A stretch of 64,000 nt of DNA, taken from assembly GCF_964213995.1 (NCBI RefSeq), contig NC_135811.1:32984001-33048000 (forward strand), read 5' to 3'. Each line of letters opens with the position of its first letter. Position 1 is the first letter of the stretch. Below are positions 1 to 41,258 of this stretch, one piece after another. This DNA is from Mustelus asterias. Lineage: Eukaryota. The notes under the pieces were generated by a model, which made no database searches, had not been told where the DNA came from, and was given only the letters and a program-made list of their open reading frames with translations. The position numbers and the translations under genes were made by a program.

Positions 1-420
1 TAGAGTCATACAACATGGAATCAGGCCCTTTGGCCCAACTTGTCCATGCTGTCCAGTTTTTACCACTAAGCTACCCCAATTGCCCGCTTTTGGCCCATAC
101 CCCTCTATACCCATCTTACCCATGTAACTGTCTAAATGCTTTTTAAAAGACAAAATTGTACCCACCTATACTATTACCTCTGGCAGCTTGTTCCAGACAC
201 TCACCACCCTCTGAGTGAAAAAATTGACTTTTGCATCTCTCACCTCTCACCTTTAACCTATGTCCTCTAGTTATCAGACTCCCCTACTTTTGGGAAAAGA
301 TGTTGACTATCTACCTGATCTATGTCCCTCATTCTTTTATAGACCTCTAAGAGATCACCCCTAAGCCTCCTACACTCCAGGGAAAAAAGTCCCAGTCTAT
401 CCAGCCTCTCCTTATAAGTC
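1..420 (-). mobile_element. CR1 LINE 3' end, same subfamily as 17899-19375
   Basis: Aligns by eye with 17899-18580 minus the inserted element; tail tagagtcata. Confidence 0.88.
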
Positions 421-2707: not shown

Positions 2708-3933
2708 TTATGTCTAAGATCTCAGTATTGTTAAACCTGTTTTAATTAAATATTGCACTCAACATATTTCTTAACTGGAATGGCAATGCCTTAAAAGTCA
2801 ACATAATGTGATTAGTTGGAGAAAGACTACAAAGCAGCTGACCCATGTTCTGACAACCATTCTGAATGCAAGTTTTCAGGTGGGAGATAAGCCGGAATGT
2901 TCACTTGTATCAGGACTACAGAGTCTGGAAGAATTCCCGACTCCGCAGATGGTTTAATTTTCATTCCGGAGGTGGGGAAGGGGTGTGTTATTGGGTCCCA
3001 CACCCCCAGAAAGAGCTCGGAGGCAGCCAAAGAGGCCACCAGGCGTGGAGATGAGCTGTGTGCAAGGATCTCCTTGCTGATTGGAGACTTTTGTCCCATT
3101 TGTAAATAAGAAACAACAAAACAGAGATCAATTCTGGGGGAGGTGGGACCTCTATGAGCCAGAGAGGTTTGCTCGTGCTGTTGAGTATGGTTTACATTAG
3201 GCGGGATGGGAACCTCAGGATAGGATCAGAATGGAATTAAATCAGAAATGGAAATGGAAGGCAGGAAATTAATGAGTGAGCCTGGAAGGCAGAGAAAACA
3301 AAGGATAGAAAATTTAAATAACATTTGGCAGTGCTCAGTGGTTATATACTTCAATGCAAGGAATAAATAAAGCAGATGAGCTGAGGGCACAGATAGAAAC
3401 ATGGTGGTATGATATTATAGCTATTACAGAAATATGCTTGAAGGGAGACAGGAATGGCACTTACAATTCCTGGTTACAGGGTTTTCAGGTGAGATAGTCC
3501 AGGGTTAAGAAGCAAGGGGAGGATGGCAAGTTTGATTAGCAAAGCAATTGCAACAAAGAAGGATGATATGATAGAAGGATTATCATTTGAGGCCATATGG
3601 GTTGAGTCTAGGAACTAAGAAGTGACAGTCGCACTACTGGGAGTGTACTATGGACCTCCAAAAACTCAGAGATGGAAGAGCAAATATGAAAGCAAGGCTC
3701 TGAGAAATGCAGTAATTGTAGGGGATTTTAATTTCCCCAATATTAACTGGGATAGTTTTAGCGTGAAAGGAATGGAGGGAACAGAATTCTTAAGGTGCAT
3801 TCAGGAAAACCTTTTTAGCCAGTATGTATACAAGTCCAACAAGAGAGGGCACTTCTGGACTTAGTTTTAGGTAATGGAGCTGGGCAGGTGGAAGGAGTGG
3901 AACTGGAGGAGTATTTTGGTAGTACCAAAGCAC

Positions 3934-19375: not shown

Positions 19376-19412
19376 ACTCAAGTCTGGAGTCTGCCACAGT
19401 GACACCTCATAC

Positions 19413-20200
19413 CTGAGTCATCTTGGCAAGGTCAAGCGATGGCCTTTGATCTTCTTCTGGTCTGCGACGCTTCATCCCAACCTTCTGATCATTGTGGACA
19501 CACGGCTGTGATCGGCATCGGAGTAGTCGACTGGTCTGCTGCACACTCTCTGGATTTGCAGCAGACTTACCCATGGTAGATGGTGCGCTGAGCTCCAGCA
19601 CAGATATCTGTTCATGAGATACAGAGAGAGGTCGCAGGAGATTGATCCCGGACGCAGCCCCTGAACTGGAATCAGGGCGCAGATCATCTTGAAACCTTCC
19701 AAAAGTGGGTGAGGTCCAAAAGCCCTGCCTCTGGGGGCACACAGACCTGGTGCTGGTAGCCAAGGGTTCATATGAGAAAGAAAAGACATTGGATCTTGAA
19801 GGCAGACTAAAACTTGAGCTCCTCTGCATTGTGGATACCCCATTTGAACAATGCTGCACACTGCTCCCACTGTGGCAGCGTCTTTTATCCACTGGAGTCC
19901 ACACCTTTGACCCGCTAGGTTTCCACGGCGACCGACAGCTTGAAAGTTCATCTGAAAATGACAGCGACCTACACTGCCGTTTGCTAGGAGGTGCTGATGG
20001 ATGGCCATTTCGATCAGTGAGGCTGAGGTCTTTGATTAAACTGGTTACAGCAGATGTTGGGTTTGAATCACTTGGCCAAGCGGTATTCTCTTGACACTCC
20101 TCCGAGCTGGTCAAACAAGTCCAAGGTGAATCCAGATTATTGGTGGCTTGCTCAAGGTCGATTTGACACTTTCTGGTGATGTCTCTCCACCGATCCCCCT
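19413..20200 (-). CDS. FAM53B: FAM53B large internal coding exon (FAM53 domain)
   Basis: ORF 19407..20114 has AVTSLIKDLS, PSAPPSKRQCRSLSFSDE, GSKVWTPVDKRRC, MQRSSSFSLPSR, RSQPCV, KRRRPEE and RPSLDLAKM. The frame extends to a phase-1 acceptor (T-rich tract, aaag|AG GGG GAT CGG TGG = GDRWRD) and ends at CAG|gtatga. 78+55+788 = 921 nt, in frame. Confidence 0.95.
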
Positions 20201-20555
20201 CTTTTCAGTTCAAATAAAACAAAACAAAAAAGGATTTTATTAGTCTGAACCCTGATGCCACAACATGGATTAGTTCTTAAGGAAACATTTGAAAACAAAT
20301 TGATCTTAACTTAAATCTGCCTTTTAAGCATAAATATTTATTCCAGTCCTTTAAAAGAGGTTTTCTAAAAAAATAAATAAATAGGAAACGAGAAACAGAG
20401 GAGATGATCGTTTAGCTCTGGACTATGTTCTGCCGCCATGCAGAGAGATCATGACTGATCAGCAATCCAGCTTCACATGCTCATCTTTGCTTCATATTCT
20501 GCAATACCAGGGCTTAATAAAAATCTGATCAATTTCAGTTTTAAATGTAATAAGT

Positions 20556-21020
20556 GATCTGGCGCCGACTGACCTGGCGCCGACTGACCTGGCGCCGACT
20601 GACCTGGCGCTAACTGACCTGGCGCTGACTGATCTGGCGCTAATTGATCTGGCGCTGACTGACCTGGCGCTGACTGACCTGGCGCTGACTGACCTGGCGC
20701 TGACTGACCTGGCGCTGACTGATCTGGCGCTGATTGATCTGGCGCTAATTGATCTGGCGCTGACTGACCTGGCGCCGACTGACCTGGCGCCGACTGACCT
20801 GGCGCCGACTGACCTGGCGCCGACTGACCTGGCGCTGACTGACCTGGCGCTGACTGATCTGGCGCTAATTGATCTGGCGCTGACTGACCTGGCGCTGACT
20901 GACCTGGCGCTGACTGACCTGGCGCTGACTGACCTGGCGCTAATTGATCTGGCGCTAATTGATCTGGCGCTGACTGACCTGGCGCTGACTGACCTGGCGC
21001 TGACTGATCTGGCGCTGAAA
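20556..21020. repeat. 15-bp minisatellite, 31 units (GAYCTGGCGCYRAYT)
   Basis: Exact 15-nt period from 20556 to 21006; 20 gacc-type and 11 gatc-type units. Confidence 0.98.
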
Positions 21021-21115
21021 GTGATTTCTGAAAGAGAATTCCAAACTTCTATCATCCTTGCCGTGTAATAGCATTTCTTAATTTTACTCCACAAAGGGCT
21101 GGCTCAAACATTTGA

Positions 21116-32815: not shown

Positions 32816-34492
32816 ACGTACCCCAGTTACCCTGACTTTCTCAGTAAAATTAACAAAATGTCGGTTTGCCCCTCCGGACATTTGAGTAGACTAATGGAAC
32901 AAGGAACAGGAAAATAAAGAGTGGGGAAACTAAATTTGAAAGTGAATAAAAAAAACATATTTCATTAGATGTGAAGTGGGAGAAAAGCCCAAGACATCTT
33001 TTTAAAATTTTACTCTAACCTGGTGAAAAGTGTGTGAAAAAAATTGCATAATTTCAGGCAAAAATGATCTGAAAGTATTCATGTCAAGAAATATTTTGTT
33101 ACTGTATATTGCAAAATGTCCATCTTATATAAGCATATTGAAACATTTTAAGCTTTCATATTTATCTAGTCTCTTTGCACAATATTTGGCAACAAAATCA
33201 GAAATGATTATACCAAGAATTGACCAATGGAACAACATAGGGAGTTGGGCAATTTTTGGAACGCAACTGAACAGGGTCAAGAGTTATTGTTAACTATTCA
33301 AAAACATTTGTTACCTAAATAAAGAGGCAGCAAAAAAAGGCTGAACATTGCCAATGAAGAGTTGCACATATGGATCAGCCATGTATCTTGCGGCTGGAGA
33401 AATGCATTAGCAAGTGTACAAGTCTTCAGGCCAAAGCACTCAGAAATCCACAAAGGTGGAGTTGCTGTTTGCCCAGTGTAGAGTGCATACCCAATTCATC
33501 CACATTAAAAGAATCTAGCTTCGCTGTAGCCATGGCTATTGAGCATGCACAGTGTGATTTATAATTTACCAGCACTGAGCATTGGCAAACTTACTGTTGA
33601 TTATCTTTTTTTTTTACTCCATTCTGAGCCAATGCTCAGAGTGGACCAGGCAAACCCATTCCTTGCTTGCTCCAAAAACCAAATTCAAATTGAATCCAAT
33701 TCACGGTCCTGAGAATAGAGACAAACAAGCTGACAAGATACGGCATTATACCGCATCTTGGGTTTGATCTGACGCTTGACTTTAGCCAAAACGTTGTTGA
33801 TGATCCTGTTAGGATTGGCCTACCTATTAGTGCATTGTCTTGCAGAGTCACTTGGGCAAGGGTGGGATGAATTCCAGTGACAGGTCCACCCTTTCATGTT
33901 GGCTTGTCAGTTATCAATAGTGCATTGCAATACTCCAAATATCAGAGTTGACTTCAATCAGCAGGTATGTCCTCAAGCAAAGCCCATTTCCCTCTCCACT
34001 GAGTGTTAGGTGTTAGCCAGTAAACAACTGCCAATATACTTGCCTTAGAGAAGGGGCACTAGATTGATTCGCAGTTATCCCATGAGGAGATCATTGATCC
34101 ACTGGAGCAAGCTGAGAGGGGTGATTGAAAAGCAGCAGTGCTGGTAAGAGATTAATTGGATTAATTGAATTGTTTATTTATTTAATTAGTCAGCTAGTGT
34201 GTGTATTTTTTTGGCCTTTACTTTAACAGCAGTTTTTCAAGTTTAAAGTGAAAACTAGAAGTGGGCAGCAAAGGAGTCTGGGAAGGGTTTTTATTTTAAC
34301 TTTAAAAGTCAGTTACCTGGGTGGTTCCCCCTCAGTAGTAGTTTGTTTTTTCTCTTGGGCCCCTAGCCCTATAAATTGGTGCAGAGGAGATACCCGATCC
34401 TCTACACTGGTAGAGGATCCCACCCTTCCATCCTCCTCTAACCTAATTATAAGTGTGGGGAAGTTTTTTGTTTTCTTTTTTTCTTGCTGGTA

Positions 34493-35422
34493 ATGGCTTC
34501 AGGGATGGCAGTTCAGGCAGTATGCTGCATCTCCTGTGGGATGTATGTGGTGAGGAAATCCAGTAGTGTTTCAGGAGATTTTAGTTGTAAGAAGTGCATT
34601 AGATTGCAGCTTCTGGAGGAGCGTGTAAAGGAGCTGGAGGGGGAGGTAGAGGAACTCCGCATAATTCGGGAGGCGGAGGTGGAAGTTGATAGGAGTTATA
34701 GAGAAATAGTAACTCCTAGAAATGAGGCTTGGGTCAATGCCAGGAGGAGGGGTAAGAAGCAATCGGGAAGACAATCCCCTGGGGCGGTTCCCCTCCATAA
34801 TAGGTTTTCGGTGCTGGAGGCTACAGTTGAGGAGGAATCAACTGAGCATAGAGAGCAGATCTCTGGGGGTGAGCCGAGTGAGAAAGCTCAGGTGGTTAGG
34901 GGCTGTAAAAGACTGGGCCTTGTGATTGGGGACTCCACAATTAAGGGGACAGATAGGAGGGTCGGAACTAAAGGTAGGGACTCAGGGTTGGTGTGTTGCC
35001 TACCAGGGGCTGGGGTCCGGGATGTGTCTGACAGGGTATTCAGGACTCTTAGGGGGGAGGGAGATAAACCACAAGTTATTGTACATGTGGGGACACACGA
35101 CATAGGGAGGATAGGGGAAGGGGATATTAGGCAGGGATTTATGGAGTTGGGGTGGAAACTAAAGGCCAAGACTGACAGAGTGGTTATCTCTGGACTCTTG
35201 CCTGTACCACGGGATAGTTTAGAGAGGAATAGGGAGAGGGAAGGTTTGAATTCATGGCTGAGGGGATGGTGCAGGAGGGAGGGGTTCAGGTACTTAAGCA
35301 ATTGGGGCTCGTACTGGGGAAGGTGTGACCTCTATGAGAAGGATGGTCTACACCTTAATCAGAAGGGGACCAATATCCTGGGGGGTAAATTTGCTAAGGC
35401 CATGCAGGGAGGTTTAAACTGA
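34493..35422 (+). CDS. CR1 ORF1: zinc finger, coiled coil and SGNH esterase-like domain
   Basis: CISC...CKKC, heptad LQLLEERVKELEGEVEELRII, SGNH blocks VIGDS, PGA, VHVGTHD and DGLH. First ATG at 34493, second in-frame ATG at 34505. Confidence 0.92.
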   Translation: MASGMAVQAVCCISCGMYVVRKSSSVSGDFSCKKCIRLQLLEERVKELEGEVEELRIIREAEVEVDRSYREIVTPRNEAWVNARRRGKKQSGRQSPGAVPLHNRFSVLEATVEEESTEHREQISGGEPSEKAQVVRGCKRLGLVIGDSTIKGTDRRVGTKGRDSGLVCCLPGAGVRDVSDRVFRTLRGEGDKPQVIVHVGTHDIGRIGEGDIRQGFMELGWKLKAKTDRVVISGLLPVPRDSLERNREREGLNSWLRGWCRREGFRYLSNWGSYWGRCDLYEKDGLHLNQKGTNILGGKFAKAMQGGLN

Positions 35423-35511
35423 TTCGGGGGGGGGGAGGGATCCTGAGTAGTGGGGCTGAAAGTGAGGGATGCATAGATGGGGACTGCAATGCACGGCATT
35501 GCAGAGGTGGG

Positions 35512-38292
35512 GTGGAGCAGGGTTTGAAATGTGTATACTTCAATGCCAGGAGTATTCGCAATAAAGTGGGTGAACTTGCAGCGTGGATCAGTACCTGGGA
35601 CTTCGATGTTGTGGCTATTTCAGAGACATGGATAGAGCAGGGGCAGGAATGGATGCTGCAGGTCCCGGGGTTCAAATGTTTTAGTCGAAGTAGGGAAGGA
35701 GGTAGAAGAGGGGGAGGGGTAGCATTATTGGTCAGAGATTGTATCACAGTGTCAGAGAGGAGGTTTGATGAGGACTTATCTGTTGAGGTAGTATGGGCGG
35801 AGATTAGAAATAGGAGAGGAGAGGTCACCCTGTTGGGAGTCTTTTATAGACCTCCTAAAAGTTCTAGAGAGGTTGAGGAAAGGATTGCGGAGTCAATCCT
35901 GCTTAGGAGTGAAAGTAATAGGGCAATTGTTATGGGGGATTTTAACTTGACTAATATTGACTGGAATTGTTATAGCTCTAGCTCGTTAGAGGGGTCAGTT
36001 TTTGTTCAAAGCGTGCAGGAAGGTTTTTTGACTCAGTATGTAGACAGGCCAACTAGAGGTGAGGCTATATTGGATCTGGTGCTGGGAAATGAGCCAGACC
36101 AGGTGCTAGACTTGGAAGTTGGTGTGCATTTTGGTGATAGTGACCACAATTCGGTTACGTTCACCTTAGTGATGGAAAGGGATAGGCATGAACCTCGGGC
36201 CAGTGGTTTTAGCTGGGGGAAGGGTAATTATGAGGCTATTAGGAGAGAATTAGGAAACATAGGTTGGACTAGGAGATTACAGGGACTGGGAACGTCCGAC
36301 ATGTGGAGTTTTTTCAAGGAGCAGCTACTGCGAGTCTGTGATAGGTATGTCCCTGTCAGGCAAGGAGGAATTGGTAGGGCTAGGGAACCGTGGTGCACCA
36401 AAAAAGTTTCTTTGTTGGTTAAAAAGAAAAAGGAGGCTTATGTTCGGATGAGACGTGAGCACTCGGGTAGTGCACTAGAAAGCTTTAGATTGGCTAAGAG
36501 GGAGTTGAAGAGCGAGCTTAGAAGGGCTAAAAGGGGACATGAGAAGACTTTGGCGGATAGGGTTAAAGAGAATCCTAAGGCGTTCTATAGGTATGTCAAG
36601 AACAGAAGGTTGGTTAGGGCAAGTTTAGGGCCAGTTATAGATGGCAGAGGGAAGTTATGTGTGGAACCGGAGGAGATTGGTGAAGCATTGAACCAATATT
36701 TCTCTTCGGTGTTCACGCAAGGGGACATGAATATAGCTGAGGAGGACACTGGGTTGCAAGGGAGTAGAATAGACAGTATTACAGTTGATAAGGAGGATGT
36801 GCAGGATATTCTGGAGGGTCTGAAAATAGATAAATCCCCTGGTCCGGATGGGATTTATCCAAGGATTCTCTGGGAGGCAAGAGAAGTGATTGCAGAGCCT
36901 CTGGCTCTGATCTTCAGGTCGTCGTTGGCCTCTGGTATAGTACCAGAAGATTGGAGGTTAGCGAATGTTGTCCCATTGTTTAAGAAGGGGAACAGAGACT
37001 TCCCCGGGAATTATAGACCGGTGAGTCTCACTTCTGTTGTCGGCAAGATGTTGGAAAAAATTATAAGGGATAGGATTTATAGTTATTTGGAGAGTAATGA
37101 ATTGATAGGTGATAGTCAGCATGGTTTTGTGGCAGGTAGGTCGTGCCTTACTAACCTTATTGAGTTTTTTGAGAAAGTGACCAAGGAGGTGGATGGGGGC
37201 AAGGCAGTGGACGTGGTATATATGGATTTTAGTAAGGCGTTTGATAAGGTTCACCATGGTAGGCTTCTGCAGAAAATGCAGATGTATGGGATTGGGGGTG
37301 ATCTAGGAAATTGGATCAGGAATTGGCTAGCGGATAGGAAACAGAGGGTGGTGGTTGATAGTAAATATTCATCATGGAGTGCGGTTACAAGTGGTGTACC
37401 TCAGGGATCTGTTTTGGGGCCACTGCTGTTTGTAATATTTATTAATGATCTGGATGAGGGTATAGTTGGGTGGATTAGCAAATTTGCTGATGACACCAAA
37501 GTCGGTGGTGTGGTAGACAGTGAGGAAGGGTGTCGTAGTTTGCAGGAAGACTTAGACAGGTTGCAAAGTTGGGCCGAGAGGTGGCGGATGGAGTTTAATG
37601 CGGAGAAGTGTGAGGTAATTCACTTTGGTAGGAATAACAGATGTGTTGAGTATAGGGCTAACGGGAGGACTTTGAATAGTGTGGAGGAGCAGAGGGATCT
37701 AGGTGTATGTGTGCATAGATCCCTGAAAGTTGGGAATCAAGTAGATAAGGTTGTTAAGAAGGCATATGGTGTCTTGGCGTTTATTGGTAGGGGGATTGAA
37801 TTTAGGAGTCGTAGCGTTATGTTGCAACTGTACACAACTCTGGTGCGGCCGCACTTGGAGTACTGTGTGCAGTTCTGGTCCCCACATTACAGGAAGGATG
37901 TGGAGGCTTTGGAGAGGGTGCAGAGGAGGTTTACCAGGATGTTGCCTGGTATGGAGGGGAGATCCTATGAGGAGAGGCTGAGGGATTTGGGATTGTTTTC
38001 GCTGGAAAGGCGGCGGCTAAGAGGGGATCTTATTGAAACATATAAGATGATTAGAGGTTTAGATAGGGTGGATAGTGATAGCCTTTTTCCTCTGATGGAG
38101 AAATCCAGCACGAGGGGGCATGGCTTTAAATTGAGGGGGGGTAGTTATAGAACCGATGTCAGGGGTAGGTTCTTTACCCAGAGGGTGGTGAGGGATTGGA
38201 ATGCCCTGCCAGCATCAGTAGTAAATGCGCCTAGTTTGGGGGCGTTTAAGAGATCCGTAGATAGGTTCATGGACGAAAAGAAATTGGTTTAG
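35512..38292 (+). CDS. CR1 ORF2: APE endonuclease plus reverse transcriptase
   Basis: EN motifs YFNARS, SETW, YRPP, GDFN, LDL, SDH; RT motifs YRPVSLTS, QHGF, DFSKAFD, GVPQGSVLGPLLF, FADD. The frame is open from 35398; 35512 is a GTG, so the true start is uncertain. Confidence 0.95.
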   Translation: MEQGLKCVYFNARSIRNKVGELAAWISTWDFDVVAISETWIEQGQEWMLQVPGFKCFSRSREGGRRGGGVALLVRDCITVSERRFDEDLSVEVVWAEIRNRRGEVTLLGVFYRPPKSSREVEERIAESILLRSESNRAIVMGDFNLTNIDWNCYSSSSLEGSVFVQSVQEGFLTQYVDRPTRGEAILDLVLGNEPDQVLDLEVGVHFGDSDHNSVTFTLVMERDRHEPRASGFSWGKGNYEAIRRELGNIGWTRRLQGLGTSDMWSFFKEQLLRVCDRYVPVRQGGIGRAREPWCTKKVSLLVKKKKEAYVRMRREHSGSALESFRLAKRELKSELRRAKRGHEKTLADRVKENPKAFYRYVKNRRLVRASLGPVIDGRGKLCVEPEEIGEALNQYFSSVFTQGDMNIAEEDTGLQGSRIDSITVDKEDVQDILEGLKIDKSPGPDGIYPRILWEAREVIAEPLALIFRSSLASGIVPEDWRLANVVPLFKKGNRDFPGNYRPVSLTSVVGKMLEKIIRDRIYSYLESNELIGDSQHGFVAGRSCLTNLIEFFEKVTKEVDGGKAVDVVYMDFSKAFDKVHHGRLLQKMQMYGIGGDLGNWIRNWLADRKQRVVVDSKYSSWSAVTSGVPQGSVLGPLLFVIFINDLDEGIVGWISKFADDTKVGGVVDSEEGCRSLQEDLDRLQSWAERWRMEFNAEKCEVIHFGRNNRCVEYRANGRTLNSVEEQRDLGVCVHRSLKVGNQVDKVVKKAYGVLAFIGRGIEFRSRSVMLQLYTTLVRPHLEYCVQFWSPHYRKDVEALERVQRRFTRMLPGMEGRSYEERLRDLGLFSLERRRLRGDLIETYKMIRGLDRVDSDSLFPLMEKSSTRGHGFKLRGGSYRTDVRGRFFTQRVVRDWNALPASVVNAPSLGAFKRSVDRFMDEKKLV

Positions 38293-38539
38293 GTTGGAGG
38301 GTCACAGTTTGTTTTTTTTAACTGGTCGGTGCAACATCGTGGGCCGAAGGGCCTGTTCTGCGCTGTAATGTTCTATGTTCTATGTTCTATGTTCTATGAG
38401 AGATTGAGTAGACTGAGCCTATATTCAATAGAGTTGAGAAGAAAGAGATAATCTCACTGAAATGAATAAACCTCTTAATGGACTTCACAGGGTAGATGCT
38501 GAGAGGCTATTTCTTCAGCTGGAGAATCTAGAATTAGGG

Positions 38540-41258
38540 TTAATAGGCTCGAGACTGGCAACTGAATATTCCGGGGTCCAAGTGTTTTAGGCGAGACAGA
38601 GGAGGGGCCAAAAGAGGTGGGGGGGGGGTAGCAGTATTACTTAGAGAGCATATTACAGCGGTGCAGAGGGAGGACAATTCAGAGGGGTCGTGTAACGAGT
38701 CACTGTGGGTGGAGCTCAGAAACAGGAAGGGCGCAGTCACTATGTTGGGGGTATACTACAGGCCCCCCAACAGCCCAAGGGAAGTGGAAGAACGGATATG
38801 TCAGGAGATAATGGATAGGTGCAGGAAAAATAGGGTTGTTGTAGTGGGAGACTTCAATTTCCCTGGTATAGACTGGAAATCGCGTAGGGCTGGGAGTCTG
38901 AATGGGGAGGAATTTGTAAAATGCGTACAGGAAGGTTCTTTGGAACAATATGTAGATAGCCCGACTAGAGAGGGGGCTATACTGGACCTAGTACTGGGGA
39001 ATGAGCCCGGTCAGGTCTTCAAAGTTTCGGTCGGGGAACATGTGGCAAATAGTGACCACAATTCTGTTAGCTTTAGGATAGTGATGGAAAAGGATGAGTG
39101 GTGTCCCAAGTGTAAGGTGTTGGATTGGGGGAAGGCTAACTTTGGGAGAGGCTGTATGAGGGTAAATCCACATCTGGCATGTGGGAGTCTTTTAAGGAAC
39201 AGTTGCTAGGGCTGCAGGATAGGCATGTGCCTGTAAAAATGAAGGATAGGAAGGGTAGGATTCGAGAACCGTGGATAACCAGGGAAATTGAGGGATTGGT
39301 CAAAAAGAAAAGAGAGGCGTACGTTAGGTCCAGGCAGCTAAAAACGGAGGGAGCTCTGGAGGAATACAAAGAAAGTAGGAAAGAACTCAAACGAGGATTT
39401 AGAAGGGCAAAAAGGGGTCACGAAATATCCTTGGCAGACAGGATTAAGGAGAATCCCAAGGCATTTTATTCATACGTTAGGAACAGAAGGGTTGTCACGG
39501 AAAAAATCAGACCTCTCAGGGACAAAAGTGGGGAATTATGCTTAGAGCCCAAAGAAGTAGGGGAGATCCTAAATGAATACTTTGCGTCGGTATTCATAAA
39601 GGAGAGGAATGTGTTGACTGGGAGTGTCTCGGAGGGGAGTGTTGACCCGTTAGAGAAAATCTCCATTACAAGGGAGGAAGCGTTAGGTTTTTTAGGGAAT
39701 ATAAAGACTGACAAATCCCCAGGGCCTGATGGAATCTATCCAAGGCTGCTCAGGGAGACGAGAGATGAAATCACTGGGCCTCTGACGCAAATCTTTGTCT
39801 CGTCACTGGACACAGGTGAGGTCCCAGAGGATTGGAGGATAGCTAATGTGGTCCCGTTATTTAAGAAGGATAGGAAGGATAACCCAGGAAATTATAGGCC
39901 GGTGAGCTTGACGTCCGTGGTCGGGAAGTTGTTGGAGAGGATTCTTAGAGATAGGATGTATGCGCATTTAGAAAGGAATAAACTCATTAACGATAGTCAG
40001 CATGGTTTTGTGAGAGGGAGGTCATGCCTCACTAACCTGGTGGAGTTTTTTGAAGAAGTGACTAGAATGGTTGACGAGGGAAGGGCCGTGGATGTCATCT
40101 ATATGGACATTAGTAAAGCGTTTGACAAAGTCCCTCATGGTACGTTGGTGCAAAAGGTTGGATCTCATGGGATAAAGAGGGAGGTGGCTAGATGGATGGA
40201 GAACTGGCTTGGTCACAGAAGACAGTGGGTGGTAGTGAAAGGGTCTTTTTCCAGCTGGATGCCTGTGACCAGTGGTGTTCCACAGGGCTCTGTATTGGGA
40301 CCTTTGCTGTTTGTGATTTATATAAACGATCTAGAAGAAGGTGTAACTGGGGTGATCAGTAAGTTTGCGGACGACACGAAAATGACTGGACTTGCAGATA
40401 GTGAGGAACATTGTCAGAGGCTACAGAAGGATATAGATAGGCTGGAAATTTGGGCAAAGAAATGGCAGATAGAGTTCAATCCAGATAAGTGTGAAGTGAT
40501 GCATTTTGGTAGAACTAACGTAGGGGGGAGCTATACGATAAATGGCAGAACCATAAAGGGTGTAGATACGCAGAGGGACCTGGGTGTGCAAGTCCACAGA
40601 TCCCTGAAGGTGACGTCACAGATGGAGAAGGTAGTGAATAAGGCATATGGCATGCTTGCCTTTATAGGACGGGGCATAGAGTATAAAAGTTGGGGTCTGA
40701 TGTTGCAGTTGTATCGAATGTTGGTTTGGCCGCATTTGGAATACTGCGCCCAGTTCTGGTCGCCACACTACCAGAAGGATGTGGAGGCTTTAGAGAGAGT
40801 GCAGAGGAGATTTACCAGGATGTTGCCTGGTATGGAAGGGCTTAGTTATGAGGAGAGATTGGGTAAACTGGGGTTGTTCTCACTGGAAAGACGGAGGATG
40901 AGGGGTGACCCAATAGAGATGTATAAAATTATGAAAGGCATAGATAGGGTGAACGATGGGAAGCTTTTTCCCTATGGTGACGTTGATGAGGGGTCATAGG
41001 TTCAAGGTGAGGGGGGGAGGTTTAACACAGATATCAGAAGGACGTATTTTACACAGAGGGTGGTGGGGGCCTGGAATGCGCTGCCGGGCAAGGTGGTGGA
41101 GGCGGACACACTGGGAACATTTAAGACTTATCTAGGTAGCCGCATGAACGGAGTGGGAATGGAGGGATACAAAAGAATGGTCTAGTTTGGACCAGGGAGC
41201 AGCGTGGGCTTGGAGGGCCGAAGGGCCTGTTCCTGTGCTGTATTGTTCTTTGTTCTTT
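38540..41258 (+). mobile_element. 5'-truncated CR1 LINE with frameshifted ORF2, (TTCTTTG)n-tail subfamily
   Basis: ORFs 38661..39209 (EN) and 39179..40999 (RT, FADD) are separated by a frameshifting deletion near 39145. Tail gttctttgttcttt. Confidence 0.92.

Follow-up and report, generated by a model that had tools for sequence, protein, structure and literature searches.

A conserved slippery heptamer and a candidate programmed -1 ribosomal frameshift site at the ORF1-ORF2 junction of shark CR1 elements

The CR1 element and its junction

A young shark-type CR1 long interspersed nuclear element (LINE) lies in a 64,000-nt stretch of the Mustelus asterias genome (assembly GCF_964213995.1, contig NC_135811.1, positions 32,984,001 to 33,048,000 of the forward strand; this whole stretch is called the window, and positions below are counted from its first letter). 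The junction between its two open reading frames, ORF1 and ORF2, falls within the window, and a preliminary description, made from the letters alone, had proposed that ORF2 is reached there by a programmed -1 ribosomal frameshift. The relevant features are as follows.

34493..35422, plus strand: ORF1, 309 aa from the first ATG, with CxxC..CxxC, a coiled coil, an SGNH esterase and the C-terminus GGLN*
35395..35397, plus strand: TAA in the ORF2 frame; the same -25 stop occurs in most lineages
35413..35419, plus strand: slippery heptamer T TTA AAC, in register with ORF1
35413..38292, plus strand: ORF2 frame counted from the heptamer, 959 aa, with an APE endonuclease (NARS at 35542) and a reverse transcriptase
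35420..35422, plus strand: ORF1 stop, TGA, immediately 3' of the heptamer; TAG or TAA in other lineages
35423..35541, plus strand: variable linker, in which -1 is the sole open frame
35426..35439, plus strand: G10-A-GGG, containing GGGGG-NN-GGG (35430-35434 and 35437-35439), a candidate stimulator
35473..35475, plus strand: codon of the ORF2 frame at +53 from the ORF1 stop, ATA in the window copy and ATG in most of its family
38371..38398, plus strand: (TTCTATG)4 3' tail of the element, read from the sequence
3189..3200, plus strand: equivalent junction in an old, decayed CR1 copy, reading T TTA CAT TAG and too heavily damaged to count as evidence

The ETW region of ORF2 aligned to the L1 endonuclease, and the NARS and SETW motifs presumably hold catalytic residues, as in that enzyme. 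ORF1 matched PF13472 and the ORF1 esterase of PDB entry 4c1b (E 1.6e-36). With an esterase-type ORF1 and an ORF2 comprising APE endonuclease and reverse transcriptase (RT), the element matches a canonical vertebrate CR1 LINE, and it resembles those described in passages of PMC13343379, PMC4120745 and PMC2734521 in its SGNH esterase ORF1, APE-RT ORF2 and microsatellite tail. Relatives of its ORF1, at 61% identity and lower, were named from sharks and rays, and homologous proteins occurred in birds and reptiles; no relatives were found in viral and prokaryote collections.

ORF1 ends in GGT TTA AAC TGA, placing TTTAAAC in the X XXY YYZ register, as first described. The ORF2 frame opens just 22 nt before the ORF1 stop, an overlap without an AUG, and is free of stops from 35398 to 38292. 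The G10 run was likewise found at 35426-35435, and the junction of the old copy indeed reads GG TTTACAT TAG.

Conservation of the junction and the downstream G motif

Within the family of the window element, a junction pattern gave 2416 genome matches, of which the first 100 listed were tallied by eye. TTTAAAC was kept in all 100. Junction length was that of the window copy in 77, with 16 copies longer by one base, three by two, one by three and two by four, and one copy shorter by one. Short-read contigs of runs X1 and X10 crossed the junction without a gap, at depths of 538 and 375, and G10 is therefore not an assembly error, contrary to a caveat raised earlier; it is the usual state of the family. 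In 40 copies sampled for the lineages of the G run, 20 with G10 and 20 with other lengths and all on contig C1, every variant common to at least three copies included G10 members. The off-length runs fit G10 source elements with per-copy slips, although assembly error would look the same. In-frame readthrough, in which G11 would put ORF2 in frame 0, was rejected, as G11 is a minority state that forms no lineage in the 40 copies save one pair. A 30-nt, frame-keeping deletion in the linker (window equivalent 35483-35512) was observed in copy L322.

The absence of an AUG ahead of the endonuclease, claimed from the window copy, applies to that copy, in which the first in-frame ATG (35653) follows both NARS and SETW, and not to its family. 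There, ATG stands at 35473 in 100/100 listed copies of 2734 matches, and read contigs show G at 35475, so the suspicion that ATA near 35473 was a mutated ATG proved right. The window copy overstates the case because the family AUG has been lost in it. ATA was found at this place in seven copies including the window copy; these share no other variant (compared with 38 other copies), and a repeated G>A change is therefore equally likely. For this reason the seven copies were rejected as proof that the AUG is dispensable.

Searches for other lineages of the same genome used four further ORF1 proteins as well as a pattern that leaves out the heptamer, and gave lineages at 27-84% ORF1 identity. Exact TTTAAAC was present in 8439 of 8849 genome matches to the heptamer-free pattern, a count that comes mostly from young copies and still exceeds chance. 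Anchoring on protein motifs gave 151 distinct records, a sample enriched for G11 copies, from which 13 without a stop at the predicted place were set aside; TTTAAAC was exact in 135 of the remaining 138. The endonuclease could be anchored in 126 records, with ORF2 in the -1 frame in 106, in frame 0 in 14 and in +1 in six, and the off-frame clusters were G-run variants of the window element's family or damaged copies. The linker between stop and NARS measured 110, 122, 131, 134, 137, 143, 152, 155, 182, 221, 233, 263, 284 or 293 nt, and all 14 of these distinct lineage lengths (four of them from bird-type loci) equal 2 mod 3 and keep the -1 offset. Stops counted in the linkers of 16 hand-picked representatives came to 65 and 67 in the two other frames and to zero in the -1 frame, consistent with a coding linker.

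Similar junctions were recovered from 66 metagenome loci of bird/reptile type. Of these, 27 reached the end of ORF1 and 25 held the junction, with the heptamer exact in 18, near in five and deleted in two; T TTA was kept in 23/25, and the -1 offset in 7/9 loci in which the endonuclease could be anchored and the offset read. An LN end was found in 73 of 120 listed relatives of a bird-type ORF1, the remainder mostly ending outside the esterase. Proteins ending in xLN came from turtle, snake, lizard and frog, and the named carriers also included rays, sharks and birds. Among the best 150 ORF1 clusters at 50% identity, 61 ended in LN, preceded in 59/61 by A, Y, S, T, G, F, N, C, H or V, each a residue with a codon ending in T; K, E, Q, M or W stood there in 2/61 clusters against an 18% background (p 6e-4, the clusters being related to one another). 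Nine of the same 150 clusters ended in GN, with Q as the preceding residue in 9/9. This Q-G-N end fits CAG GGA AAC, which would give a G GGA AAC site, and U_UUA_AAC and G_GGA_AAC are listed among the most shifty sites in a passage of PMC5009743. Shark loci fetched with a Q-G-N-type query turned out to be TTTAAAC lineages. A further set of ORF1s, with a DGLHP-type esterase like the solved 4c1b protein, was without the L-N end (P0227, P0229, P0233, P0279, P0290, P0293 and P0298); their elements form a natural control group without use of this site.

Production of ORF2 from a spliced or internally started RNA, with TTTAAACTAG as a splice acceptor or promoter element, appears very unlikely. The TAG lineages do end in YAG, as this explanation would have it, but the TAA and TGA lineages (10/24) are without that AG, AUG-less lineages would still need a start, and no joints were seen in the read contigs, a weak test confined to contigs.

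Conservation extended to synonymous positions. Among 24 other invariant ORF1 residues in 12 lineages, 23 showed synonymous change, whereas the codons of the heptamer were fixed. In CR1 ORF1s, TTA makes up 10% of Leu codons and AAC 38% of Asn codons, and T is the third base in 22%; the rows for codon usage and for the 24-lineage G-tract comparison were located by the heptamer and are not counted as evidence for it. An in-register heptamer, a conserved open -1 ORF and conservation of synonymous positions, three marks of a frameshift site, were found at the junction; a further mark, a downstream ORF devoid of its own start codon, was seen in other intact lineages and not in this family.

Downstream, GGGGG-NN-GGG starts after a 10-nt spacer from the heptamer (at the 11th nt) in both sharks and birds. 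G occupied +8 in 133/138 records, GGG occupied +9..11 in 134/138 (GGG being 30% of Gly codons) and +15..17 in 124/138, in a set of which part came from 30 loci selected by the G motif itself and the rest did not. The codons with this G at +8 as their third base encode L, Q, K, R, G or E, which points to an element acting at the RNA level. Selection on the Leu-Asn protein end and a Gly-x-Gly peptide alone, which would make the DNA match a by-product, would account for the L and N that are invariant at the C-terminus in ORF1 alignments. We consider it extremely improbable, as the codons are fixed against usage, T is fixed under ten different residues, the G at +8 and the GGG after it persist under varied codons and well above usage, Gly-x-Gly is encoded in the -1 frame ahead of almost every AUG, and a CTG AAT-like end is modal in no cluster.

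The preliminary description took the G tracts for an RNA G-quadruplex driving a real frameshift, a proposal that competes with the stimulator step only. The tracts are present in the window copy, G4Hunter gave 1.92 at its junction, at least 1.2 in 20/24 lineages and a value above the 92nd percentile of the element in 24/24, and RNAfold placed a quadruplex at the junction in 11/24 lineages (rows picked with a GGG filter). However, four tracts of at least three G were found in just 6/24 lineages, two tracts at a fixed distance alone being conserved, and the natural use of quadruplexes in frameshifting was "not currently known" in 2016, according to a passage of PMC5009743. A quadruplex may form in this G-rich family, but as the stimulator it is unlikely. 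A C-rich site about 650 nt upstream recurred as a pairing partner of the G motif; it was rejected, since it consists of Pro codons of P-x-x-x-P-L-x-N that vary. No downstream long-range partner of the motif recurred across lineages.

Translation of ORF2

Taken together, a heptamer and an offset that are conserved among lineages and among vertebrate classes, and the occurrence of intact lineages that have no AUG, suggest that the CR1 ORF1-ORF2 junction is probably a programmed -1 ribosomal frameshift site. The original interpretation is supported to this extent; its quadruplex stimulator is unproven, and the family does possess an AUG. Most ribosomes would terminate at the stop that follows U UUA AAC, with release of the ORF1 protein (ORF1p). 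A minority, paused at that stop while U UUA AAC occupies the P and A sites, would slip by -1 and read ...GGLN-LIRGGGG... through the variable linker. The predicted product is an esterase-endonuclease-RT fusion with a computed length of about 1266 aa, close to the 1260 aa first suggested. The pause may come from the G motif 10 nt downstream together with the stop codon, the motif probably acting as a linear or protein-bound element and not as a hairpin. In the family of the window element ORF2 may also be started at the AUG at +53, a second route that could coexist with frameshifting.

The proposed arrangement resembles several known systems. In the coronavirus infectious bronchitis virus, the U_UUA_AAC heptamer and its register are identical to those of the CR1 junction (passage of PMC5009743), and retroviral gag-pol sites likewise have a structural ORF upstream and a polymerase downstream. 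Unlike sites of the coronavirus and retrovirus type, the CR1 junction is without a stem-loop or pseudoknot 5-9 nt downstream and without a protease to cut the fusion. In arteriviruses (nsp1beta plus PCBP) and cardioviruses a 3' element stands at a long fixed spacer, as does the CR1 motif at the 11th nt, the spacer of protein-stimulated viral frameshifts being 11-14 nt (passage of PMC5009743); the CR1 motif differs in being G-rich, and any trans-acting factor would be putative. Among non-LTR (non-long terminal repeat) elements, TRE5-A and TRE3-A of Dictyostelium are APE-type and need a -1 frameshift for ORF2, as proposed here for CR1, according to a figure legend of PMC5911963 that gives neither site nor mechanism; they belong to another clade in another kingdom.

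Several observations weigh against frameshifting. No conserved hairpin or pseudoknot was found 5-9 nt downstream by energy folding, which included no dedicated pseudoknot search: z was at most -2 in 2/14 lineages, with unlike folds. A local hairpin or pseudoknot stimulator, not being conserved in the 14 lineages, was rejected. The esterase forms the last part of ORF1 and would not be separated from the endonuclease, no protease being encoded. The G GGA AAC site is predicted from protein only, and a DNA scan of viral contigs found none. In the family of the window element 23/100 listed copies have another G-run length, and among the 40 sampled copies one private single-nucleotide polymorphism (SNP) was common to two G11 copies alone. 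The offset does vary within the family, one of the 23 off-length copies still being in frame, but the model is not overturned, since copies with off-length runs occur across SNP lineages, each of which includes G10 members. An in-frame AUG lies upstream of the endonuclease in that family, in which the majority has ATG at +53, and an AUG was present in all five bird-type representatives, with three of the five having it at +5, a position that makes reinitiation easy. The AUG is lineage-specific, however, and for this reason its presence in one family does not overturn the model either. The preliminary description had named both an upstream AUG in the family and a varying offset as grounds for refutation.

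The elements L244 and L258 have both ORFs open and the first Met only after NARS and ETW, and their lineages are AUG-less in the modal state. Elsewhere the AUG was found at +2, +5, +26, +32, +53, +59, +68, +98, +104, +107 or +137, and its presence changed five times on an endonuclease tree of 22 rows, built from fetched loci, with long branches from damaged copies, and used solely to count these changes. No AUG position is conserved. The element L245 has a TGESLN-type ORF1 end as in L244, yet its endonuclease groups with L270 and L250 on this tree, which includes damaged copies; modules of ORF1 and ORF2 may have been exchanged close to the junction.

The main rival to frameshifting is termination-reinitiation, in which ORF2 would start at the linker AUG or independently of an AUG, with the heptamer kept as part of a termination or reinitiation signal. 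The AUG at +53 in the window family and a pre-endonuclease AUG in 14/22 tree rows agree with it, as do the stop-start overlaps TAATG or TGATG, seen in L074, L093 and L153 only (neither in the window element nor conserved), where a start at the stop would also fix the frame. There are precedents in SART1, which uses UAAUG (passage of PMC2699510), and in L1, where ORF2 initiation is AUG-independent (passage of PMC5009743). Both share with CR1 a bicistronic LINE RNA and a need for little ORF2 protein (ORF2p), while their ORF2p is separate and the CR1 junction is without a conserved stop-start. Reinitiation nevertheless leaves unexplained the exact in-register slippery heptamer, the apparent Q-G-N swap and the open -1 stretch of 50-140 nt between stop and AUG, and no near-cognate start common to the AUG-less lineages was found. 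We judge it unlikely as the main explanation.

A literature search, the partial texts of which did not extend to the original CR1 descriptions, found no frameshifting in any CR1. The original descriptions reportedly had closely spaced or overlapping ORFs, and may include an earlier proposal of this kind. To our knowledge, few LINEs have a settled mode of ORF2 translation, and those that have been characterised rely on reinitiation. The non-LTR passage of PMC5009743 covers HeT-A, TART and L1 only. In their available passages, PMC13343379 (a 2026 survey of CR1-group elements) makes no mention of frameshift, overlap, start codon, translation or fusion, PMC4120745 none of frameshift or overlap, and PMC2734521 does not address ORF2 translation.

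As judged from sequence, the junction carries a recoding signature that is deeply conserved within an established LINE clade, and it would be a variant of a known mechanism. The CR1 group makes up 22-34% of elasmobranch genomes (passage of PMC13343379). If true, a conserved CR1 slippery site would offer a defined and easily assayed answer for a very abundant group of vertebrate transposons, would change how intact copies and the start of ORF2 are annotated in CR1, would place esterase, endonuclease and RT on one chain, and may supply a natural frameshift stimulator other than a hairpin or pseudoknot. More tentatively, and with rather less than even confidence, the LINE clade that dominates in sharks, reptiles and birds may have made its RT as a Gag-Pol-like ORF1-ORF2 fusion since before the jawed-vertebrate split, by a structure-free -1 frameshift whose linear G motif 10 nt downstream would be bound by a host protein or ORF1p, with a distant clade relying on G GGA AAC.

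Other observations

In six of the 40 sampled copies (L302, L303, L311, L316, L319 and L330) the match to the window element begins at 34451, about 40 nt before ORF1, and SNPs at 34947 and 36203 are common to five of the six. Such a shared start points to a source element that spread although its 5' untranslated region was short or replaced. Two database entries hold CR1 ORF1 proteins under other names: P0011, 58% identical to the window ORF1, is filed as an SGNH hydrolase of Pseudomonas aeruginosa, and P0028 as a sawfish ribosomal protein S24 isoform. These are probably cases of contamination and mis-annotation.

Elsewhere in the window, a second, 5'-truncated CR1 ORF2 lies at 38547-40999, starting about 150 nt past the tail of the intact element. 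An open frame of 265 aa occupies 19407-20204 on the minus strand; it resembles an exon of a putative FAM53-type host gene, which may contain the CR1 or lie close to it. A tandem array with a 15-nt unit, in which several frames are open, is located at 20473-21103.

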